DNA of 50,975 bases from a phage. The stretch lies in the sequence record PZ871100.1; one strand, written 5' to 3'. Position 1 is the first letter of the stretch. Every line of letters begins with the position of its first letter. Below the pieces are notes generated by a model that was given only the letters and a program-made list of their open reading frames with translations, was not told the DNA's origin and made no database searches. The position numbers and the translations under genes are program-made. Positions 523-50,975 of the stretch are shown here, piece after piece.

Positions 523-2090
523 TGCTGATTTGGGAAGACTTAACAGCGGCGCAAAAACGCGCCGTTAAGGAAATGAGCGAATATTCATTCGAAAAGATGA
601 TCCGCATTTGGTTTCAGTTATTGCAAGGTCAGAAATTCTTAGGAAACTGGCATTTCAGTTACCTATGTAGCGAAGTTGAAAAAATCATCAAAGGCGAGTC
701 ACAGAATGTAATTTTCAACATAACGCCAGGTAGTGGTAAAACAGAGATATTCTCGATCCATATGTCACCTTATGCGTCATTGAAAAGTAAGAAGGTGCGA
801 AATCTTAATCTTTCGTTTAGTGATGGCCTTGTCCAGCAGAATAGCAACCGCATTAAGGAGATTATTGGTTCTCCAGAATGGCAGGAGCTATGGCCTGGAA
901 AGCTGGCAAAGGCGAGCGCAAAGGATTTGATTGTAACCGATGGCGGCAAGGTTAAATTACAAGTTAACTCGCGTTCTATCGGTGGTCAGGTTACTGGTCT
1001 GCGTGGCGGATACATGGACGATGGATTTACTGGTATGCTGGTTCTTGATGATCCAGACAAACCGGATGACATGCTTTCTAAGGTGAAGCGCGAAGCCGGA
1101 CACATGCGCCTAAAGAACACTGTTCGATCGCGTCGAATGAAGGACACCACGCCAATTGTGATGGTTCAGCAACGCCTACACGTCAATGATTCAACATGGT
1201 TCATGACAAACGGCGGCATGGGCGGCATCAAGTTTAAGGTGGTTAGTATTCCGGCGCTCGTTACTAAGGAATATCGCGAAACGCTTCCTGATTGGTTAAA
1301 GCCTGAGTTTGATCGCGATGTTTTGTCCAGTAAGCCAGTGATGATTGATGGAGTTGCTCATTATTCATTCTGGCCTGCTAAGGAAAGCGCTGAGGAATTG
1401 CTTGCGCTTCGCAATGCTGATCCGTACACGTTCGCTAGTCAGTATCAGCAACAGCCTGTTGCGCTTGGCGGTAACGTGTTTAAAACAGAGTGGTTTCAGT
1501 ATTACGGCAGCAGCGAGAAATGCACGTTACCCAAACCGGATCGCTTTGAATATACATTTATCACGGTTGATACCGCGCAGAAAACAGGGGAGCTTAACGA
1601 CTATTCCGTGATCTGTTATTGGGGGATGTATAAAGATCGTGTTTACTTCATTGATGGCGTGCGCGGAAAATGGGAAGCACCGGACCTTGAGACGAATTTT
1701 GTTGCATTCGTGAATCAGTGCTGGAAGCGCAATAAAGAATGCGGAACGTTGCGAAGGATTCATGTTGAAGATAAATCGTCTGGCACTGGATTGATTCAGA
1801 GTGCGGCGAAAAAAATCATGATCAAGATCAATCCCGTTCAGCGCGATAAAGACAAGGTTACTCGTGCAATGGACGCAGCACCAGTAATGCGCGCCGGACG
1901 CGTGGCACTTCCAGAATCGCATCCTATGATGGCTGAGATACTAGCTGAAGTTGCGGCGTTCACATTCGATGATTCGCATCCTCATGATGATATTGTTGAT
2001 AACATCATTGATGCGGTTAACATTGAAATGAACATGGCAGACGATCCGGTAGGAAGAATGAAAAAACTGGCAGGTTTGCGGAACAAATAG
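522..2090 (+). CDS. terminase large subunit
   Basis: 522 aa; N-terminal ATPase region (ITPGSGKTE) and C-terminal nuclease-like region; precedes portal. Confidence 0.85.
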   Translation: MLIWEDLTAAQKRAVKEMSEYSFEKMIRIWFQLLQGQKFLGNWHFSYLCSEVEKIIKGESQNVIFNITPGSGKTEIFSIHMSPYASLKSKKVRNLNLSFSDGLVQQNSNRIKEIIGSPEWQELWPGKLAKASAKDLIVTDGGKVKLQVNSRSIGGQVTGLRGGYMDDGFTGMLVLDDPDKPDDMLSKVKREAGHMRLKNTVRSRRMKDTTPIVMVQQRLHVNDSTWFMTNGGMGGIKFKVVSIPALVTKEYRETLPDWLKPEFDRDVLSSKPVMIDGVAHYSFWPAKESAEELLALRNADPYTFASQYQQQPVALGGNVFKTEWFQYYGSSEKCTLPKPDRFEYTFITVDTAQKTGELNDYSVICYWGMYKDRVYFIDGVRGKWEAPDLETNFVAFVNQCWKRNKECGTLRRIHVEDKSSGTGLIQSAAKKIMIKINPVQRDKDKVTRAMDAAPVMRAGRVALPESHPMMAEILAEVAAFTFDDSHPHDDIVDNIIDAVNIEMNMADDPVGRMKKLAGLRNK

Positions 2091-2120
2091 CACGAATCGA
2101 CAAACCAATATATAATCAAA

Positions 2121-6324: not shown

Positions 6325-6407
6325 CACAAAATTATGTTGCACGTTTAACAAAAAATGCTATCATTGGTCCGTTACATACTAACGACCTTTATATATGGAG
6401 GAAGAAA

Positions 6408-10064: not shown

Positions 10065-10134
10065 TTACTGTACAATCATGCTACACGATTCATAATCAAT
10101 TCTTTTAACAAAAAGTGCTATCAAGGAGAAAGAA

Positions 10135-10452
10135 ATGTCAAAAATGAAATTGACGATTGGGCCGCTTCCTGACTTTAAATTACCAGTGAAATTTGCAATG
10201 CCTAACGGAGAAGATCAAACAATTATCTTCACAGTTCGCCACCGCAAAACAAGTGAGATTCACGAGCGCTACACGTCAGATACTCCAATGAGCGATGTTG
10301 AAATGATCACCTTCCTTGCTTCTGGTTGGAATCTTGATGATGAATTTAACGAAGAAAATATTAAACAGCTTCTTGATTACTACCCAGCAACAGCAATCGG
10401 ATTAACTAGCGCATACATGAAAGCGCTTGCTGGGCAGCGAGTAAAAAACTAA
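10135..10452 (+). CDS. tail assembly chaperone (lambda gpG-like)
   Basis: 105 aa; ends at slippery heptamer A AAA AAC; followed by -1 frame ORF. Confidence 0.7.
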   Translation: MSKMKLTIGPLPDFKLPVKFAMPNGEDQTIIFTVRHRKTSEIHERYTSDTPMSDVEMITFLASGWNLDDEFNEENIKQLLDYYPATAIGLTSAYMKALAGQRVKN

Positions 10453-20743: not shown

Positions 20744-20787
20744 ACTATACACGATCTTGCGGTTGGCGTTTAGCAAAAAGTGCTATT
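20744..20787 (-). promoter_or_regulatory. conserved-box promoter-like unit driving Cor-like lipoprotein gene
   Basis: Minus-strand reading AATAGCACTTTTTGCTAAAC then 17 nt then TATAGT (plus 20744-20749). Confidence 0.55.
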
Positions 20788-20899
20788 CTTGTTCTTTTTG
20801 TTATCCGGTGTTCTCAAATCTGCGGAGTCTTAAATTTAGCTCAAAAAGCGAACAACAATAGAGCGCAATACATACAGATAAATATATATACATACATAT

Positions 20900-21050
20900 A
20901 AATCAATAAGTTAGTAGTATATATATTCATGTTTGTTCTTTATTGTTATCTATGTTTTGTGTGATTTTGTGTGTCTGGTGATTTTTCTGTGGTTATGCAT
21001 GTGTCATTGGTTATATGTGTCTATATATCTATATCCGGCGCAAATTGAGG
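20900..21050. repeat. GT-rich noncoding element A (homolog of 42403-42600)
   Basis: Shares exact 16-mer AAATCAATAAGTTAGT (20900-20915) and diverged GT-rich tract with element B. Confidence 0.6.
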
Positions 21051-21156
21051 AACAAGAGAACAAAAGATAACAAAGATATTTATCAATCACTTACATGTAA
21101 GTTTTGTTATCTAAGTTGGTTATAACGTTATTAGAACAGAAAAAACAAAATAACTA

Positions 21157-22275: not shown

Positions 22276-22284
22276 ACAGCACAA

Positions 22285-22318
22285 ATAGCTAAACAAATGA
22301 AAAATGCGGTGTTATAAT
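22285..22318 (+). promoter_or_regulatory. variant box-like element with TATAAT inside a hairpin
   Basis: AAATAGCTAAACAAATGAAAA then GCGGTG TTATAAT TCACCGC; upstream of gene 22357. Confidence 0.35.
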
Positions 22319-27524: not shown

Positions 27525-28457
27525 TTAGAGAAGAGATTCAGGTTTATAAACCTTCCTCTCTATCCCTTGCCTGTAATTATCATTAATCGGCATCATAATT
27601 TCAAGTCCTCTTTCCTCGGCAGCAATGATCGCGTCACGATCTGTGCTCTTACAGACAACTCGCATTCTTCTGTTGCCTTTATACCTGTAAGCTACAATCT
27701 CAATGTTAGTTGCATCAAAGCAGGCCCAAACCTCTTGACCAGTTGCAAGGTGAATATGTTGCGCATCAATCCAGTCAACGCAAAGATAGATCGTCTTATC
27801 TGTGCTTCCTGTTCTCACAACCGACCCGCGCGTGTAGTCCTTTGCGAGAAAAGACCGTTTACCTTCTTCATCAATGAAAAGCACATTGCACATTTCATCA
27901 TCAATCTCATCTGAGTGTACCATGTGACAAGGTAGCGCGTGAATGTATCTACCATCTTTTACGCCGCAATCATAATGACCATCTTCAGGCGGGTATATTC
28001 CTTCATATGTGCTTAACGGCGTTCGATTAAATTTTAGTGTTTTTGACATAACGCGCTCGCAGCATTCATGGCTTGCCTGTTTACCAAACGAATAACCAGA
28101 ATCACGAGATACTCGCTTATTTGCCTTGATTCTATAGTCCTGCGGAACTTTTCCAAGAAAGCGACCCAAAATATTGATCACTTCGCTGTAAGGTTCTCCG
28201 GTTAGCTTCATGATCCAACCAATTCCAGTATCATTACCGCACACGTTGCAGATCGCACCGCCATCGCCTTTTTTATCGCCAAGTTTATCTGTCCACCTGA
28301 ATCGATCTTTTCCGCCGCAGTGGGGGCAAGATTGATGCTTGCCGTTAAAAACTTCATTTGGAAGACCGCAAATACTTTGTAGCGCCTCACGCCATAATCC
28401 TTGCATATATGGGAGAACATCTTCCTTTTGATAAACCATAAAGTTTTCGTTGTTCAT
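27525..28457 (-). CDS. DNA primase (zinc-binding CPxCGG type)
   Basis: ATG 28457 with GAGGTG RBS; CPHCGGKDRFRW...CNVCGN zinc-ribbon; followed by terminator. Confidence 0.65.
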   Translation of the reverse strand: MNNENFMVYQKEDVLPYMQGLWREALQSICGLPNEVFNGKHQSCPHCGGKDRFRWTDKLGDKKGDGGAICNVCGNDTGIGWIMKLTGEPYSEVINILGRFLGKVPQDYRIKANKRVSRDSGYSFGKQASHECCERVMSKTLKFNRTPLSTYEGIYPPEDGHYDCGVKDGRYIHALPCHMVHSDEIDDEMCNVLFIDEEGKRSFLAKDYTRGSVVRTGSTDKTIYLCVDWIDAQHIHLATGQEVWACFDATNIEIVAYRYKGNRRMRVVCKSTDRDAIIAAEERGLEIMMPINDNYRQGIERKVYKPESLL

Positions 28458-28512
28458 ATGCACCTCAAACAAAAAAGCCTGACAGATGATAACATCATGA
28501 CAGGCATTGTTT

Positions 28513-28986
28513 TTAGCAATTAGTGCTTTCAGGTTTATACAGGAATCCGCCAGGTTCATAATCTGACATTCTTACCACTCGCAACATTTCACGCTTATCA
28601 CATCTCTTTGTGAGCGGTTTTCCATTGGAATCAAATCGCAGATCTGGACGGCAGAATGAAGCGCGATAACCTTGACAGCCATACTTTTTATAATCATTGT
28701 GCACCTTTTGAGCGCCAGCGGCTGAAATCATACCGCGAACTCGCCACTGATTTACAGTTTGCTGGCTAACGTTAAGACGTTTTGCCATTGCTGACACACT
28801 TCCGTAATACTCAATAAGGATGTCAAGGCGTGCTTTTAGTCCGGCTCGCACTTCATCTTTTAAAACATAGTATCCTGTAGGGCGCTTGCGCTTCTTCTTG
28901 TCCTTGCCTCGTCTTGTTCCGTTATTGCCATTAATTGTGCGCTTGTCAATCTTTCCTGTTGATACTGCGATTCGTTGTTCTTTCAT
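28513..28986 (-). CDS. helix-turn-helix DNA-binding protein (putative regulator)
   Basis: 157 aa; basic N-terminus KDKKKRKRP; HTH-like SVSAMAKRLNVSQQTVNQW; heads the minus replication block. Confidence 0.5.
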   Translation of the reverse strand: MKEQRIAVSTGKIDKRTINGNNGTRRGKDKKKRKRPTGYYVLKDEVRAGLKARLDILIEYYGSVSAMAKRLNVSQQTVNQWRVRGMISAAGAQKVHNDYKKYGCQGYRASFCRPDLRFDSNGKPLTKRCDKREMLRVVRMSDYEPGGFLYKPESTNC

Positions 28987-28999
28987 TATTCATTCTCCA

Positions 29000-29042
29000 A
29001 TAGCATTTTTTGTTAAACGATGATTTAATGATTGTGTATTAT
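29000..29042 (+). promoter_or_regulatory. conserved-box promoter-like unit (box ATAGCATTTTTTGTTAAACG + 17 nt + TATTAT), helicase operon
   Basis: Box 29000-29019, -10-like hexamer 29037-29042; divergent from HTH gene. Confidence 0.55.
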
Positions 29043-29075
29043 ACACGCCAAATGGCATTACTCAAAGGTTTTAGA

Positions 29076-31121
29076 ATGATTCCAAACATTGAAAAGCAAA
29101 TATCAGCACTTGGCGAAGCGGTAATTAAATCCATTCAGGAGAGATTCACTGTTGGCGATATTGTGCCTTACCCTTACCAGTGCGTTGCATACGCTGAGAT
29201 CGCAAAGCGTATGAAAAATTATGAGCATCCATTCTTTGTTAAAGCGTCCGTATCTGCTGGCAAAACATTGATGTTTGCAATGGTTGCTCACCAGTGCCGG
29301 AAAATGGGCTTGAAAATGATGGTCCTTGCTCGCCAGGCTGAGATTGTAGATCAGGATTCTGAAGAGATAACAAATCTTGGTGTGCCGAACTCCATCTATT
29401 GTGCAGGACTGAAGACAAAAAGCGCATACTTTCCGATCGTTGTTGGTTCTGAGGGAACTGTAGTTAATGGACTGTTTAAAGCGCTTGGCGACTATGTTCC
29501 GCACGTTATCGGGATTGACGAATGTCACCAGGTGGATTGGGAAGACCTTGCCGACGCAATAGAGAAAGACGAATCATTTTTACAAATGACGACGAAGAAA
29601 GGCGAAAAAGTACCAAATCCAGATTATGACATAACAAAGGGAAGCAGGAACAGAAATACAGAGTTCCTGATTGGTGAGGATGGCTTGCCAATAGAGGGAA
29701 CAGGCCGCACACAATACACTGTCATTATCATGGAAATGATGCGCCGCTGCAGGAAAGCATATGGCCATGAACTGCGCATATTTGGCATGACTGGATCGGA
29801 GTTTCGCGGCGTAGTCCCGATCTTGGTAGAAGACAAAAAACAGAAAGGATTCTGGCGTGAACAGGTTACTAATATTGACACCAACTACCTGATCAAATTC
29901 GGTTCTGTTGTGCCAACAAATTTTGGCGACGTTGGCGATCTAGGGTATGACCTTTCAGAGTTTGAGGCATCCAGTGAGGATGGGGTTGCAGACTTTGACG
30001 CTAAAACGCTTCGCAGGATGGAACAAAAAATTCATGAAGAAGCGACCATGACAAAGCGCATCATGGCGAAAGTTCACGAGATCTGTAAAAACCGTAACGG
30101 CGTACTTGTGACATGTGCAGGAGAAAGGCATTGCAAAGAGGCTTCGGCGGCGTTGCCGCCTGGAACGACTTACAGGATCATTACTGGTAAGACTGGCGAT
30201 AACCAGCGCAAGGAGTGGTTGAAAGAAGCATACGAGGGAAAGGTTAAATACATCTTCCAGGTGCAGGCGCTAACTACTGGCGTTAACGTGCCGTTTTGGG
30301 ATACGTCTGTTATTCTGCGTAAGATTGGATCTCTTACGTTGCTGATTCAGCTTTTAGGGCGCGGAATGCGACTACTTAAGAAGTGGCATAAGGAGCAAGG
30401 ATTCCAGAAAGATGATCATCTCGTCATGGATTTTTCAGGAACGATGGACGAGCTGGGTGAGCTTTATTTTGATCCGATACTGGAACAGGCGCAGCACCAG
30501 AAGCGATTCAGAAATGGTAAAGATCCGAAGCCTTGTCCTGTTTGCGGAACTCTTAACAGCTATTATGCTCGTCGTTGTATGCACGTAGACGAAAACGGCA
30601 ACAGATGCGAGTGGTTCTTTAAATTCAGGACATGTGATGATCAGATTGACCCGCGCACTAAAAAGATTATTCATCGCGGTTGCGGAACTAAGAATGATAT
30701 TGCGGCCAGGGTATGCAGACATTGCGACATGTCATTGATTGACCCTAACGAGAAGTTAAGCGGAAAGCACTACACAAAAAACGACTGGTTCCAAGTGCAA
30801 TCTTTCGCGGTTGATATGACGAAAAACCAGAAAGGGATAATATTTAATTATGAGCTTTCCGATGGCATAGATACTTTCAAGGCGAGAGAGATATTTTTCC
30901 CTGAGTCTGAGAGCCAAATTTGCCGCGCAAAATGGCGAAGCGTTGCTCTTAAGCATATACCGGATCGCCGTGTCGCTGGTATGGTGGCGAGCTATCGCAA
31001 TGCGCGTAAAATCATGCAATATGTGAATCACATCATGCCGCCATCGCGTGTGACTCACCGCAAGACTAGCAAGGGCGAAGATAATTTGTACAAGAAGGAA
31101 TTTAATTATGGCAATGACTGA
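29076..31121 (+). CDS. SF2 helicase (DECH box) with C-terminal Cys-rich zinc-finger-like region
   Basis: Walker A-like SAGKTL, DECH motif GIDECHQ, C-terminal CPVCG...C...C clusters; start ambiguous (29052 or 29076). Confidence 0.75.
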   Translation: MIPNIEKQISALGEAVIKSIQERFTVGDIVPYPYQCVAYAEIAKRMKNYEHPFFVKASVSAGKTLMFAMVAHQCRKMGLKMMVLARQAEIVDQDSEEITNLGVPNSIYCAGLKTKSAYFPIVVGSEGTVVNGLFKALGDYVPHVIGIDECHQVDWEDLADAIEKDESFLQMTTKKGEKVPNPDYDITKGSRNRNTEFLIGEDGLPIEGTGRTQYTVIIMEMMRRCRKAYGHELRIFGMTGSEFRGVVPILVEDKKQKGFWREQVTNIDTNYLIKFGSVVPTNFGDVGDLGYDLSEFEASSEDGVADFDAKTLRRMEQKIHEEATMTKRIMAKVHEICKNRNGVLVTCAGERHCKEASAALPPGTTYRIITGKTGDNQRKEWLKEAYEGKVKYIFQVQALTTGVNVPFWDTSVILRKIGSLTLLIQLLGRGMRLLKKWHKEQGFQKDDHLVMDFSGTMDELGELYFDPILEQAQHQKRFRNGKDPKPCPVCGTLNSYYARRCMHVDENGNRCEWFFKFRTCDDQIDPRTKKIIHRGCGTKNDIAARVCRHCDMSLIDPNEKLSGKHYTKNDWFQVQSFAVDMTKNQKGIIFNYELSDGIDTFKAREIFFPESESQICRAKWRSVALKHIPDRRVAGMVASYRNARKIMQYVNHIMPPSRVTHRKTSKGEDNLYKKEFNYGND

Positions 31122-31527
31122 TAAAGGCGATTATCTGGAGTTTTACGAAAGAGATCCGACAGATACGCTAAAAGAGGAATCGCACCAGATCGGGGCGTTT
31201 CAATGGTTGACTTATGCATACCCTGAATTGCTGGCATGGCATACGAAAAACGAGGGCGACAAGGGGATCGCTACAGCAATGATGGATCAGCAAGCTGGGC
31301 TTGTTAAGGGCGTAAGTGATTTTATCATCCTGATTGGATTAAAAGGCCGTTACCCGTTCGCGGCAATTGAGATGAAGCGCGTCAATAAGTCCGGCAAGGG
31401 TAAGGCTTCACCAGTCAGCAAAGAGCAAAAAGCCTTCTTGCGACGTGTGCGTGAGCTTGGCGGATTCGCCGCCGTAACATACGGATATAAGCAATTCATG
31501 ATCGCTGTAGAATACATGATGAAATAG
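31108..31527 (+). CDS. VRR-NUC domain nuclease
   Basis: 139 aa; SDFIIL...AIEMKR...KEQKAF motif arrangement of PD-(D/E)XK VRR-NUC. Confidence 0.65.
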   Translation: MAMTDKGDYLEFYERDPTDTLKEESHQIGAFQWLTYAYPELLAWHTKNEGDKGIATAMMDQQAGLVKGVSDFIILIGLKGRYPFAAIEMKRVNKSGKGKASPVSKEQKAFLRRVRELGGFAAVTYGYKQFMIAVEYMMK

Positions 31528-31567
31528 CACTTTTTGTTAAAACAGGCGCGAAGGATTGCGCCATAAT
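31524..31567 (+). promoter_or_regulatory. conserved-box promoter-like unit upstream of Dam-like gene
   Basis: Box ATAGCACTTTTTGTTAAAAC 31524-31543, inverted repeat GGCGCG...CGCGCC in spacer, CATAAT 31562-31567; upstream stop TAG inside box. Confidence 0.6.
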
Positions 31568-32307: not shown

Positions 32308-32565
32308 ATGCAAAAAGAAAGAAGCATTTATTTAAATGAAACTGGAAAGTGGTTGTTATTTCGCGCTATGGTATGCGATGCACTTGATAAAAACCCTAAC
32401 GTGAAAAAGATGATTGATTGCGATCCGTGGGAATTTTCAAGCGCATTAGATATGAGCTTTGAGGAGACAAAAAAACTACCGCTTGAAAAATGGAGCGAGC
32501 AAATCAGAAATGACATGCAAGAATTTGTCGATTCGTGGAATTTTCAGCACGGAATGATCCACTAA
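32308..32565 (+). CDS. hypothetical protein
   Basis: 85 aa from ATG 32308; stop TAG embedded in promoter box. Confidence 0.4.
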   Translation: MQKERSIYLNETGKWLLFRAMVCDALDKNPNVKKMIDCDPWEFSSALDMSFEETKKLPLEKWSEQIRNDMQEFVDSWNFQHGMIH

Positions 32566-32608
32566 TAGCACTTTTTGTTAAAACGCCCGACCTTGTGTCG
32601 GGCATAAT
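32565..32608 (+). promoter_or_regulatory. conserved-box promoter-like unit
   Basis: Box 32565-32584, spacer inverted repeat GCCCGAC...GTCGGGC, CATAAT 32603-32608, leader CATCAAAACGA. Confidence 0.6.
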
Positions 32609-35786: not shown

Positions 35787-35830
35787 AATATACCCGATAC
35801 GAGATCGGGAGTTTTAACAAAAAGTGCTAT
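35787..35830 (-). promoter_or_regulatory. conserved-box promoter-like unit
   Basis: Minus-strand box (plus 35811-35830), spacer inverted repeat CCCGAT...ATCGGG, TATATT (plus 35787-35792), leader CATCGAAACGA. Confidence 0.6.
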
Positions 35831-37953: not shown

Positions 37954-37997
37954 ATAATACCGCACCAATGCTACCCGCATTTAACAAAAAATGCTAT
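37954..37997 (-). promoter_or_regulatory. conserved-box promoter-like unit upstream of P-loop NTPase gene
   Basis: Minus-strand ATAGCATTTTTTGTTAAAT, 18 nt, TATTAT (plus 37954-37959). Confidence 0.55.
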
Positions 37998-38629: not shown

Positions 38630-38673
38630 ATTATGCCAGGCTTTTACACCTGGCTTTTAACAAAAAGTGCTAT
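38630..38673 (-). promoter_or_regulatory. conserved-box promoter-like unit
   Basis: Minus-strand box (plus 38654-38673), spacer inverted repeat GCCAGG...CCTGGC, CATAAT (plus 38630-38635), leader CACCGAAACGA; methyltransferase-like stop TAG in box. Confidence 0.6.
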
Positions 38674-40029: not shown

Positions 40030-40072
40030 ACTATACCAGGTTTGAGAAATATTGTTTAGCAATTCGTGCTAT
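40030..40072 (-). promoter_or_regulatory. conserved-box promoter-like unit (variant ATAGCACGAATTGCTAAAC)
   Basis: Minus-strand box (plus 40054-40072), 18 nt, TATAGT (plus 40030-40035). Confidence 0.55.
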
Positions 40073-40680: not shown

Positions 40681-40724
40681 AATATACCAATCAGAGGCGC
40701 ATAGGTTTTAACAAAAAGTGCTAT
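40681..40724 (-). promoter_or_regulatory. conserved-box promoter-like unit
   Basis: Minus-strand box (plus 40705-40724), 18 nt, TATATT (plus 40681-40686), leader CATCGACAACGA. Confidence 0.55.
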
Positions 40725-41186: not shown

Positions 41187-41230
41187 AATGTACAGGAATA
41201 CGAGGATTGAGTTTTAACAAAAAGTGCTAT
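41187..41230 (-). promoter_or_regulatory. conserved-box promoter-like unit
   Basis: Minus-strand box (plus 41211-41230), 18 nt, TACATT (plus 41187-41192), leader CATCGACAACGA. Confidence 0.5.
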
Positions 41231-42064: not shown

Positions 42065-42107
42065 TTATGACAAATACAGTCAGGCACGTTTTAACAAAAA
42101 GTGCTAT
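42065..42107 (-). promoter_or_regulatory. conserved-box promoter-like unit (first of the minus small-gene block)
   Basis: Minus-strand box (plus 42088-42107), 17 nt, CATAAT (plus 42065-42070), leader CATCGAAACGA. Confidence 0.6.
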
Positions 42108-42402
42108 TTGCTGACTGGTCATTATTCCATATATTCCATTAATCAGGAATAACAGGAATAACTCATTCGCGATCACCTGGATTGGGAGACTTTGAGTTTG
42201 GTCAATTTTAATCAAGTGATTAACTTTTTGTGTGGAGGGGATAGAGAAACGCGATCCTCTCGCACCCTTTCCGGCAATCCTGGCGCGCAACATGTTCATT
42301 ATGTTTCCAGCCGTTCACGCAAATAAGCCTCCGCAGTTCTTCCACGTTTCATGCTGTCATGCACACAAAAGAAACAATGTAAAATCTATATAAATACACA
42401 TT

Positions 42403-42600
42403 AAATCAATAAGTTAGTTATATATGTATTTATATTTGTTTCTTATTGTTCTTGTTGTGTGATGGTTATTGGTATATGTTGCGATTTTTGTGTTGGTGGA
42501 TATTGATTGTTTATTGTTCGATTTGGTTGATGATTATGGTTGCTCATGGTTGCGTATGATTCTTGATGTATTTATGTATATATCCGCGAAAATTCGCGAA
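42403..42600. repeat. GT-rich noncoding element B (homolog of 20900-21050)
   Basis: 16-mer AAATCAATAAGTTAGT at 42403-42418, GT-rich tract, inverted repeat CGCGAA aa TTCGCG near 3-prime end. Confidence 0.6.
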
Positions 42601-42707
42601 CAGCCACACAGCCAAAAAACATGATGAGGATTCTTTTGAAATCATGCACTTAACTGCGAATTTTGTTTCCGCGCAATCTCCACACGTATAGCGAACAATT
42701 AGAACGC

Positions 42708-43236: not shown

Positions 43237-43496
43237 TGACTAAGGCATTAATTGGAGTTTTGATTGCAATCGCTACCCTGACCGGATGCGAAAAGGCATC
43301 GGAATCAACGGTTGTAGCAGGCGTGGAGTCAGATTTCAAAGTCGGTCGCCTGTTCACTGTTGACGGATGCACAGCATACAGATTCTATGATAACGGTCGC
43401 GCGATCTATTACACCAATTGCAAAGGCGCAACGAATAGCACGCGCAACAGCGGAAAGTACATAATGCACCAGCAAGTCACAACAGATATTGAATAG
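43236..43496 (+). CDS. small lipoprotein (second Cor/Llp-like candidate)
   Basis: 86 aa; signal peptide and lipobox LTGC; GGAGG RBS; TAATG overlap. Confidence 0.5.
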   Translation: MTKALIGVLIAIATLTGCEKASESTVVAGVESDFKVGRLFTVDGCTAYRFYDNGRAIYYTNCKGATNSTRNSGKYIMHQQVTTDIE

Positions 43497-43536
43497 CACT
43501 TTTTGTTAAAACGCCAGGTGCGAATCCTGGCATAAT
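43493..43536 (+). promoter_or_regulatory. conserved-box promoter-like unit
   Basis: Box 43493-43512, spacer inverted repeat GCCAGG...CCTGGC, CATAAT 43531-43536, leader CATCGAAACGA. Confidence 0.6.
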
Positions 43537-43569
43537 AGCCTCATCGAAACGAGATTGAGGAAAACAAAA

Positions 43570-43956: not shown

Positions 43957-44000
43957 ATAGCACTTTTTGTTAAAACTTAAAAACGATAACCAGGCATAAT
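43957..44000 (+). promoter_or_regulatory. conserved-box promoter-like unit
   Basis: Box 43957-43976, 18-nt spacer, CATAAT 43995-44000. Confidence 0.55.
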
Positions 44001-44945: not shown

Positions 44946-44988
44946 ATAGCACGAATTGTTAAAACTCAAATGTGGGGCCAGGTATAAT
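44946..44988 (+). promoter_or_regulatory. conserved-box promoter-like unit (variant box ATAGCACGAATTGTTAAAAC)
   Basis: Box 44946-44965, TATAAT 44983-44988 inside inverted repeat GGCC...GGCC. Confidence 0.55.
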
Positions 44989-46008: not shown

Positions 46009-46166
46009 CATGGATTCTATTTGTGATTATCACAAGCTACAATTCAGCCGCAATTGAGTCTCGCGAGTTCCACGGTGAATCAAGATGTCAGGCCGCGAGA
46101 GAGCAAGTAATTTTGCATATGTCAGATAACGATAAAGAAGTTGAAGTATTCTGTGTTCGTAAATAG
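46005..46166 (+). CDS. hypothetical small protein (53 aa, hydrophobic N-terminus)
   Basis: Not in ORF track; ATGA overlap with phosphatase stop; stop TAG inside promoter box. Confidence 0.35.
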   Translation: MTWILFVIITSYNSAAIESREFHGESRCQAAREQVILHMSDNDKEVEVFCVRK

Positions 46167-46206
46167 CACTTTTTGCAAAAACAGATTATCGGGCTTGCTG
46201 TATAGT
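46163..46206 (+). promoter_or_regulatory. conserved-box promoter-like unit (variant ...TTGCAAAAAC)
   Basis: Box 46163-46182, TATAGT 46201-46206, inverted repeat GGGCTT...AAGCCC. Confidence 0.55.
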
Positions 46207-46876: not shown

Positions 46877-47467
46877 ATGAAACGCGACATTATCATTCTT
46901 AACGGACCGCCAGGAGTTGGCAAAGATACGCTTGCGGCATACTTAACTGGCCATCGTTACGCAGCCGTTAAAGCGTCGTTTAAGCAACCGATGTTTGATA
47001 TTGCATTCTCCATGCTTGGCGTTTACCTATATGACGAGTTCATTGATCTGTATAACGACCGCGAGCAGAAAGAAAAGCCTCAAGCAATCTTGCAAGGCAA
47101 GTCTCCGCGACAATTCATGATCTGGATTAGCGAAGAAGTCATGAAGCCAGCTTTTGGCGAGCAATATTTTGGGAATCGCATGGTTGAGCAAGTACACGAG
47201 ATGTACAGAGATTTAGCTGTTGTAATTAGTGATGGCGGATTCCCTGAAGAAATCAAACCGCTCGTTAAGGCAGGCCATGAAGTGCACATTTGCCGACTGC
47301 ATCGCGAAGGATTCACGTTTGATGGCGATTCGCGAAACTATATTGACCTGAACGGATACCATCACCGAGTCAAGCATTACGACTTCACAATGATTGATGG
47401 CGAGCCAGAAAAGACTGTTGACGAGATCATCAAAACGGTGCAGTGGAAACACACAAAGATTGAATAG
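46877..47467 (+). CDS. P-loop nucleotide kinase (dNMP kinase or polynucleotide kinase-like)
   Basis: ATG 46877 with GGAG RBS; Walker A NGPPGVGKDT. Confidence 0.55.
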   Translation: MKRDIIILNGPPGVGKDTLAAYLTGHRYAAVKASFKQPMFDIAFSMLGVYLYDEFIDLYNDREQKEKPQAILQGKSPRQFMIWISEEVMKPAFGEQYFGNRMVEQVHEMYRDLAVVISDGGFPEEIKPLVKAGHEVHICRLHREGFTFDGDSRNYIDLNGYHHRVKHYDFTMIDGEPEKTVDEIIKTVQWKHTKIE

Positions 47468-47507
47468 CACGAATTGCTAAAAGCGGGGCGCAATGCCTCG
47501 CTATAAT
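47464..47507 (+). promoter_or_regulatory. conserved-box promoter-like unit (variant ATAGCACGAATTGCTAAAAG)
   Basis: Box 47464-47483, TATAAT 47502-47507. Confidence 0.55.
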
Positions 47508-48521: not shown

Positions 48522-48809
48522 ATGGCTAAAAGCAATCGTAAAATGTTGATTAACGCATTCGAAAAGGCGGCGCTTGAGCGTGGTTGGAATGACTCATTTC
48601 ACACAGCAAACTGTATCCGCCATTACGGATTCAAGAATTGCCGATCCTGGGCGCGTGAAATGGCTTCATGGTATGATCTTGATGCGCATTACCTTGATAT
48701 GGATTGCGCCCTTGTTGAAATGATTGAGCAGGCCGCACTAGAGGATCGACCATTAACGCAATCTGATTTTGACGATTTTGTGCGCGATGAAATTTATTAT
48801 ATGAGCTAA
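48522..48809 (+). CDS. hypothetical protein
   Basis: ATG 48522 with AAGGAGG RBS; 95 aa; stop adjacent to promoter box. Confidence 0.4.
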   Translation: MAKSNRKMLINAFEKAALERGWNDSFHTANCIRHYGFKNCRSWAREMASWYDLDAHYLDMDCALVEMIEQAALEDRPLTQSDFDDFVRDEIYYMS

Positions 48810-48852
48810 TAGCACTTTTTGTTAAAACTTCCGCGAGGGCATTTGTTAAAGT
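48809..48852 (+). promoter_or_regulatory. conserved-box promoter-like unit
   Basis: Box 48809-48828, 18-nt spacer, weak hexamer TAAAGT 48847-48852, leader TTGAAGCGAAACAGAGGAAA. Confidence 0.45.
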
Positions 48853-50902: not shown

Positions 50903-50924
50903 CCCGCCAAATGGCGGGTTTTTT
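50903..50924 (+). terminator. rho-independent terminator at right end of window
   Basis: CCCGCC aaat GGCGGG then TTTTTT. Confidence 0.7.
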
Positions 50925-50975
50925 ATTGCCTGCAATTTGTCTATAATGATGCTTTGTTATAAAGGAGGGCGCATT

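Follow-up and report, generated by a model that had tools for sequence, protein, structure and literature searches.

Promoter boxes of a T1-like phage have the sequence of class II marboxes and may be read by host MarA-family activators rather than by the phage helix-turn-helix protein

At the middle promoters of phage T4, served by MotA and AsiA, and at the promoters served by Mor and C of phage Mu, an early phage protein acts with a conserved box that replaces the -35 element upstream of a sigma70 -10. In the T1 family, the 2024 re-annotation of phage TLS described a 21-nt direct repeat, aaATAGCACnnnTTGnTAAAA, in 18 intergenic copies approximately 76 nt upstream of start codons, with similar repeats in T1, Rtp and Rogue1; a stoperator, an enhancer or an UP element was proposed, and no binding protein was named (PMC11447400). 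Enterobacterales possess the activators MarA, SoxS, Rob and RamA (PMC12052159, PMC5684230). Here we describe a stretch of phage DNA of 50,975 nt (sequence record PZ871100.1; the whole stretch is hereafter the window), a near-complete genome of a T1-like phage (Drexlerviridae, Hanrivervirus), about one genome in length, in which a recurring promoter box proved to be the same element as the repeat of TLS, T1, Rtp and Rogue1, at the same positions; TLS repeats DR11 and DR10 correspond to the boxes of the helicase and primase promoters, between which lies the gene for a helix-turn-helix (HTH) protein. Judged by its sequence, the box belongs to the class II marboxes and has their consensus form; marboxes are asymmetric 20-bp sites recognised by monomeric host activators with two HTH motifs, namely MarA, SoxS and Rob, with RamA as the counterpart in Klebsiella and Salmonella. 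Because of this match the host, rather than the HTH protein, probably switches on the promoters of the gene cassettes that carry it.

Between 19 and 21 copies of the box, according to how it is defined, were counted in the window, nearly all co-oriented with the gene downstream. A conserved box had been pointed out in an earlier account drawn from these letters alone (the sequence-only reading), and it proved to be a genuine repeat: exact matches to GCANNWWNTGNNAAA numbered 21, against 1.68 ± 1.36 in shuffled sequence, and the pattern gcannwwntgnnaaa, used by the Grainger laboratory to search for MarA sites (PMC12052159), likewise gave 21 exact matches in the window against 1.68 ± 1.36 after shuffling. 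A position weight matrix (PWM) was built from 31 experimentally mapped Escherichia coli MarA sites obtained by chromatin immunoprecipitation sequencing (ChIP-seq; Table 1, PMC5684230). By this matrix the phage boxes reached 14.8-19.4 bits and were the top 21 15-mers of the whole window; for the ChIP sites the leave-one-out median was 11.4 and the highest score 19.0. When the window was searched with AYnGCACnnWnnRYYAAAYn, which we take to be the classical 20-bp marbox consensus, 21 sites matched at one mismatch or fewer (1.39 expected); the box positions left free in the MarA search pattern (A1, Y2, C7, Y14, Y15) also fit this consensus, and the variable triplet at box positions 8-10 falls within the uncontacted spacer of the marbox. 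Conservation was greatest at G4, C5, A6 and G13 (approximately 1.8-1.9 bits each) and was asymmetric; G4 is kept in 99% of copies, whereas its dyad partner, position 14, is C in 48% and T in 41%, and T2 (67%) is similarly unequal to A16 (96%). The sequence evidence that MarA-family proteins are able to bind the boxes is strong.

Two of the boxes flank the HTH gene. That of the helicase promoter, ATAGCATTTTTTGTTAAACG (20-nt core at 29000-29019, plus strand), is a forward marbox and an exact match to the MarA pattern (PWM 14.8 bits); it is identical at 14 of 15 positions to the verified MarA site ypeC, and it is conserved in 44 loci. That of the primase promoter, AAAGCACTAATTGCTAAAAA (28510-28529, minus strand), overlaps the last codons of the HTH gene (E-S-T-N-C-stop) and, at 19.4 bits, is the top PWM score of the window; its 15-nt core (28512-28526) is identical to the published consensus marbox gcactaattgctaaa (PMC5684230).

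A -10-like hexamer (CATAAT, TATAAT, TATATT and similar) was found 17-18 nt downstream of 19 of the 21 boxes (18 nt in 15 cases, 17 nt in four), as against 4.4% of random positions. In the box promoters no -35 hexamer was found at proper spacing, and a genome-wide sigma70 scan caught only two of them, by way of TTAAAA and TAAACA within the box; they are thus promoters of the activator type. The micF promoter of E. coli MG1655, a textbook class II promoter, has the same geometry, with marbox ACAGCACTGAATGTCAAAAC, 18 nt and TAGAAT. Assuming a predicted start approximately 7 nt after the -10, box positions G4 and A6 were computed to be -47G and -45A, two bases that Rob contacts (PMC9178005); the class II soxbox is centred at -41.5 (PMC9638938), and on the same assumption the phage boxes are centred close to that point. 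Two other assignments of the box were rejected. As a sigma70 -35, the in-box TTGTTA sits 21-22 bp from the -10, which is too distant. The sigma54 promoter motif is TGGCAC-N5-TTGC, and TAGCAC-N3-TTGC in the box, although similar, is 2 nt short, has AG for GG and stands at a fixed distance from a sigma70 -10.

The HTH gene (28513-28986, minus strand; ATG start, 157 amino acids) and the gene for an SF2 helicase (29076-31121, plus strand; 681 amino acids; Pfam ResIII and Helicase_C, PHROG 16) diverge, as the sequence-only reading had stated, over 89 bp (28987-29075), the helicase being read from the first ATG that has a ribosome-binding site (RBS), at 29076. The 3.7 kb around the HTH gene are 96-97% identical to phages EC147, damhaus, aalborv and pSf-1 (Escherichia and Shigella; Drexlerviridae, Tempevirinae, Hanrivervirus), in which the HTH open reading frame (ORF) is annotated as a 'putative transcriptional regulator' between 'DNA primase' and 'helicase'. 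The divergent helicase/HTH/primase arrangement was found in 843 phage records and 44 IMG/VR loci, and the HTH ORF is a genuine core gene of T1-family phages. The DNA primase gene (27525-28457, minus strand; Pfam Zn_Ribbon_Prim) is annotated in relatives from 28559, overlapping the HTH gene by 47 nt; its start is probably ATG 28457 (310 amino acids) and not 28559, since the marbox promoter lies downstream of 28559, an RBS (GAGGTG) is present, and the homologues, including those of phage Vc1 and metagenomic relatives, are of 308-311 amino acids.

Within the divergent region, the RBS of the HTH gene (GGAGAA; TTCTCC on the plus strand, 28993-28998) lies 1 nt from the 20-nt box core. It had been described as overlapping the box; 2 nt are indeed shared with a box drawn as 23 nt (28997-29019), but the conserved core at 29000-29019 is merely abutted, so that the relation is one of adjacency. 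Of 40 distinct related intergenic sequences, all but one, a misassembled record, have the RBS beside the box. The -10 of the helicase promoter, TATTAT (29037-29042, plus strand), follows its box by 17 nt, and the rightward start is predicted near 29049. The predicted sigma70 promoter of the HTH gene (29038-29065, minus strand; 10/12 in a promoter scan) consists of TTGAGT (29065-29060), 16 nt and TATAAT (29043-29038), the sole minus-strand -10-like element of the 89-bp spacer, and its predicted transcript starts at approximately 29031, which places the helicase box at about +13 to +32. Because the HTH -10 and the helicase -10 region are reverse complements of each other, polymerase at either promoter would exclude polymerase from the other. 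Most clades retain the heptamer TATTATA, and distant clades have an equivalent near-palindromic -10. Supplementary Table S1 of the TLS study lists only three sigma70 promoters, one of which, P57 (minus), is the promoter of the TLS HTH orthologue (PMC11447400). Because the HTH-gene promoter, the helicase box and the primase box all have TLS equivalents (P57, DR11 and DR10), the layout of the window is family-wide. On the primase side, the -10 (TATCAT, 28486-28491, minus strand) is separated from the box by 18 nt and occupies the loop of a hairpin (28477-28505) that is followed by T6 (28471-28476); this element (28471-28505, minus strand) was read from the sequence, a simple terminator scan having failed to flag it, and it may close the HTH unit in the manner of a terminator, its sequence being interleaved with that of the primase promoter. 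The HTH gene is accordingly laid out, by prediction, as a single-gene, sigma70-driven unit flanked by two marbox promoters, that of the helicase to the right (plus) and that of the primase to the left (minus).

The HTH protein matched PHROG 2856, 'transcriptional regulator' (E = 3.3e-78, covering amino acids 4-144), and over amino acids 55-89 it came just under the Pfam cut-offs for YdaS_toxin (29.8 bits, cut-off 30) and P22_Cro (25.2 bits, cut-off 30.2); its homologues form 118 protein clusters, every one on contigs of approximately 50 kb. Structure comparison of an AlphaFold2 (AF2) model (predicted local distance difference test, pLDDT, 85.8) assigned the core to the all-alpha Cro fold, with Cro repressors as the nearest structures; the Cro-type HTH domain spans amino acids ~40-105 (28672-28869, minus strand). 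The view that a protein of DNA-binding type is placed here where it could regulate itself was supported: the fold is that of Cro, the gene has a sigma70-type promoter of its own that overlaps the helicase -10, and the box lies in its leader. The predicted recognition helix, SQQTVNQWRV (amino acids 75-84, 28735-28764, minus strand; AF2 helix H75-84), is among the most variable segments of the protein, reading SHQTIQQWRK, SIQVVQQWRK, GTQVVNEWVK, THGCIEQCVK, THGAVRWWLA or CCRLTNAYRL in homologues. Across 15 phage lineages the box consensus is constant, whereas the HTH proteins are 46-100% identical and their recognition helices differ; the DNA-reading helix is neither conserved nor co-varying with the box.

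Conservation in the HTH protein is concentrated elsewhere. A basic N-terminal arm, DKRTxNGNNGTRRGxDKKxRK (amino acids 14-34, 28885-28947, minus strand), is invariant at D14, R16, N19-N22, R26, G27, D29 and R33 in an alignment of 31 sequences; the N-terminal 35 residues are predicted to be unstructured (pLDDT ~60), yet no motif of the family is more invariant than the one they contain. Also conserved is the C-terminal extension, GYRASFCRPDLRFDxNGK, and a search for fold matches to the arm and to this extension returned none. The tail 'ST(N/D)(C/S)' is kept in homologues whose linkers differ, possibly because the primase marbox overlaps the codons that encode it. Two candidate operators were rejected: the palindrome GTGTATTATACAC, of which the heptamer TATTATA alone is kept across clades, and GCCAAATGGC, considered as an operator common to another promoter, the second copy of which (50906) is a terminator stem.

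The same promoters were also found outside the Drexlerviridae. In the Pantoea myovirus AAM37 (Dibbivirus), an identical box with 18-nt spacing was observed at nine promoters or more. Its HTH homologue is the 73-amino-acid core only, overlapping the primase start codon and missing the arm, and its helicase-HTH spacer contains no box, though box promoters occur elsewhere in the genome. AAM37 also encodes a 136-amino-acid AraC-type protein, gp49 (L050 14901-15311), whose best matches are MarA and RamA; a MarA-like gene is carried by only 10 of 50,697 phage records, and its pairing with boxes in AAM37 is suggestive. A cascade in which this activator gene is expressed first and the boxes follow was weakened by the presence of two degenerate box promoters upstream of the MarA-like gene. 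The genus Dibbivirus (AAM37, PSKM and Xanthomonas phage DIBBI) combines T1-type marbox promoters with a phage-encoded MarA/RamA-like protein of 136 amino acids. A complete T1-type cassette (box, 18 nt, TATAGT, ATCGAAAC leader and small ORF) was observed in a 174,436-bp IMG/VR contig (L065 10063-10085, minus strand). This last occurrence suggests that promoter-gene cassettes move between phage families.

We give an even chance to the explanation that host MarA, SoxS or Rob reads the boxes and that the HTH protein is a Cro-like regulator, acting locally or on the replication module, and not the box reader. A MarA-family protein, pre-existing or induced in the host, would bind approximately 19 box promoters and recruit sigma70 RNA polymerase. 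The HTH gene would be transcribed from its ordinary sigma70 promoter (predicted, TTGAGT-16-TATAAT), and an activator on the box within the HTH leader would favour the helicase direction. By analogy with Cro at divergent promoters, the HTH protein would act as a repressor or modulator on clade-specific control-region sequences, regulating itself and tuning the helicase and primase; its target might alternatively be other DNA of the replication module. A MarA-like protein encoded by the phage itself was rejected, in that phmmer with MarA (query sequence verified against PDB 1BL0) found no match below E = 2 among all six-frame ORFs of the window, and a Pfam search of ten cassette proteins found no MarA-type DNA-binding domain. 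The hosts of the 843 HTH-carrying phage records are almost all Enterobacterales.

A number of observations weigh against this explanation. Rob is described in the literature as sequestered and inactive unless inducers are present, and MarA and SoxS as inducible (PMC9178005); for a very fast virulent phage, dependence on such proteins seems risky, and a phage factor might replace or activate them. The HTH gene is among the few with a canonical sigma70 promoter, as would be expected of an early phage activator, and the -35 of that promoter is weak in several clades. No conserved palindromic operator for the HTH protein was found, the only operator candidates being clade-specific short inverted repeats in the spacer of its promoter (GCCA-N2-TGGC in the window, CGCA-N4-TGCG in Klebsiella phages and ATGCC-N6-GGCAT in TLS). 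In pairwise alignment the MarA-like protein of AAM37 lacks the MarA base-contact residues W42, Q45 and R46. Finally, Vibrio, Pseudomonas and Campylobacter are named as hosts in a few records with the same boxes; these non-enterobacterial labels are doubtful. Twenty 'Campylobacter phage' records (MG065669, MG065675, MG065640 and others) are 96-100% identical to E. coli T1-like phages in the region, and the host named for them seems unreliable, as it does for 'Pseudomonas phage Motto' and 'Vibrio phage Vc1'.

The sequence-only reading had made the HTH protein the candidate regulator of the cassette promoters, which we now disfavour. In a model of this kind, which we consider unlikely, the protein would be made early, from its sigma70 promoter, and would bind the partial dyad TAGCA-N5-TGYTA of the box, probably as a dimer; like Mor and C of Mu or MotA of T4, it would activate the promoters of the helicase, the primase and the cassettes, and it would repress its own transcript, in whose leader the box lies. 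It is attractive in that box promoters, having no -35, call for an activator, that the host's MarA, SoxS and Rob are scarce or sequestered as long as the cell is unstressed (PMC9178005), and that the HTH protein is the only conserved annotated regulator of the family, its gene being among roughly three units driven by a canonical sigma70 promoter; some boxes are, moreover, perfect TAGCA-N5-TGCTA dyads, and the invariant basic arm could touch the A/T-rich centre of the box. However, the box is a marbox in sequence, orientation and spacing, and its symmetry does not fit an HTH dimer, G4 (99%) and C14 (48%) being unequally conserved, as are T2 and A16. Few parts of the protein are less conserved than the recognition helix, yet the box is invariant, and the fold is Cro-like, not Mor/C-like or MotA-like. 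AAM37, in turn, has the same promoters with a truncated HTH protein and no adjoining box. From the variable helix beside an unchanged box, the asymmetry of the box and the case of AAM37, we argue that the HTH protein is probably not the box reader.

A role outside transcription, which we likewise rate as unlikely, would make the HTH protein a DNA-binding component of the replication module (in origin recognition, or as an accessory of the primase or helicase), its position reflecting co-inheritance. The helicase/HTH/primase synteny is conserved across Drexlerviridae and recurs in an unrelated myovirus genus, where the 73-amino-acid homologue overlaps the primase start codon; the annotations name no other protein as origin-binding, and a conserved partner, whether protein or DNA, is suggested by the invariant arm together with the C-terminal motif FCRPDLxFD. 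The nearest structures are nevertheless Cro repressors, no origin or iteron array could be linked to the protein, and a replication role is compatible with host reading of the boxes rather than exclusive of it. Less probable still, in our estimation, is a box that works without any factor, as an UP-element-like or displaced -35-like element for polymerase alone or as a stoperator-like roadblock, its likeness to a marbox being coincidental. The most conserved positions (G4, C5, A6, G13) are recognition elements of the marbox and not features of UP elements, TTGTTA is too far from the -10 to serve as a -35, and the micF geometry combined with top MarA PWM scores is unlikely by chance. T1-like phages do thrive in unstressed laboratory cultures, as a factor-independent box would allow, and the T-tract and TAAAA of the box resemble A/T-rich UP subsites. 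UP elements, enhancers or stoperators were, besides, what the TLS authors proposed (PMC11447400).

Among non-coding sequences, a 92-nt AT-rich direct repeat with 73% identity between its copies (20899-20990 and 42402-42493) was observed inside two long non-coding, repeat-rich regions (~20790-21110 and ~42300-42700); these regions may serve as origins or other cis elements and may be targeted by the HTH protein.

The remaining box promoters are distributed on both strands. On the plus strand they lie at 22276-22295 (ACAGCACAAATAGCTAAACA; 17 nt, TATAAT), at 31524-31543, upstream of the Dam methylase gene (18 nt, CATAAT), and at 32565-32584 (18 nt, CATAAT), followed by the cassette promoters at 43493-43512, 43957-43976, 44946-44965 (GAA subtype), 46163-46182, 47464-47483 (GAA subtype) and 48809-48828. 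On the minus strand are the promoter of a small lipoprotein-like gene (20767-20786; 17 nt, TATAGT), that upstream of a DUF3987 helicase-like gene (37978-37997), and the cassette promoters at 35811-35830, 38654-38673, 40053-40072, 40705-40724, 41211-41230 and 42088-42107. In many box promoters a leader, ATCGAAACGA(A), starts approximately 6-8 nt past the -10 and is followed by GAGGA and ATG; examples are found at 43543-43552 (plus), 42057-42048 (minus) and 35780-35771 (minus), and the leader, which is conserved across distant T1-like phages (L046, L047, L065), is probably the 5' end of the transcript. In seven of approximately 19 promoters the spacer forms a strong GC hairpin (-7.5 to -14 kcal/mol; shuffled sequences, -2 to -4), examples being those at 31541-31562, 32582-32603, 43510-43531, 47481-47502 and 38656-38635 (minus); the sequences of these hairpins are unrelated. 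In other promoters a hairpin encloses the -10. The hairpins may act as terminators or insulators with which the following promoter is interleaved.

Two good boxes, 6342-6361 and 10102-10121 (both minus strand), lie antisense within the structural operon, which is on the plus strand; one precedes the major capsid gene and the other the gene at 10135, and the former is conserved in Vibrio phage Vc1 (L046 5711-5730) and in TLS (DR7). As class I marboxes for the plus-strand genes they were rejected, the 46 nt and 13 nt to the start codons being too short for a promoter; they may drive antisense RNA or act as roadblocks. A further marbox-like site, ATAGCACGAATCGACAAAC (2087-2105, plus strand; PWM 13.6 bits), is situated within the late operon, just upstream of the portal gene. 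At the start of that operon, whose small terminase gene is at position 1, a terminator is followed by TATAAT (50942-50947) with neither a -35 nor a box (region 50903-50947); Vc1 and Motto have a proper extended -10 there (TGCTATAAT).

Should host activators read the boxes, most early and replication transcription of the virulent T1-family phages would pass through approximately 20 class II marboxes, host MarA, SoxS and Rob (RamA) would gate phage development, and the HTH protein would be a counterweight; we put this tentative picture slightly short of an even chance. Were it true, multidrug-resistant strains with constitutive mar, sox or ram expression, or exposure to bile, salicylate or oxidants, would boost phage gene expression. 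The HTH protein, expressed from an activator-independent promoter, would be the counterweight of the phage's own at the helicase/primase control region. In that case a phage family that is large and in therapeutic use would be tied to the regulon that drives multidrug efflux in its host, with a bearing on phage-antibiotic synergy and host range. Whichever factor reads the boxes, the annotation 'transcriptional regulator' should not be taken to mean a regulator of the cassette promoters.

Both the gene and the repeat are already known and annotated. A statement that the T1-family repeat is a class II marbox was not found in the searchable literature, and in a search that left most subscription journals outside, nothing was found that links marboxes to phage promoters or MarA, SoxS or Rob to the growth of T1-like phages. 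The marbox identity and the fixed distance to the -10 are absent from the TLS paper, and the marbox offers a concrete, testable hypothesis for a repeat that the 2024 re-annotation left unexplained (PMC11447400). If this is confirmed, a virulent phage family would be putting a known promoter class to a new use, and the question that TLS and T1 annotation has posed about the repeat would be answered.

Set beside described systems, the HTH protein resembles the all-alpha Cro proteins (P22 Cro, N15 Cro and Xfaso1 Cro; Pfam P22_Cro and YdaS) but differs from them in its basic arm of approximately 40 amino acids and its C-terminal extension of approximately 50, and, unlike Cro, it belongs to a strictly virulent phage without a partner repressor. 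The MotA/AsiA system of T4 and the Mor and C systems of Mu follow the very logic that the sequence-only reading proposed; the HTH protein, however, has no sequence or fold similarity to these activators, the box fits the site of a host activator, and the DNA-reading helix does not co-vary with it. The closest likeness is to the class II promoters of MarA, SoxS and Rob in E. coli (micF, lpxC P2 and rfaY P1), with which the phage promoters share the asymmetric 20-bp marbox and its GCAC and YAAA elements, spaced by roughly one turn of the helix, the forward orientation, the overlap with the -35 position, the distance of 18 nt to the -10 found in micF and the lack of a canonical -35. In contrast to their E. 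coli counterparts, the phage marboxes are far more uniform and constitute the dominant promoter type (approximately 19 per 51 kb) of a virulent phage; their spacers often contain a GC hairpin, the conserved leader lies downstream, and binding by the host proteins is predicted from their sequence.

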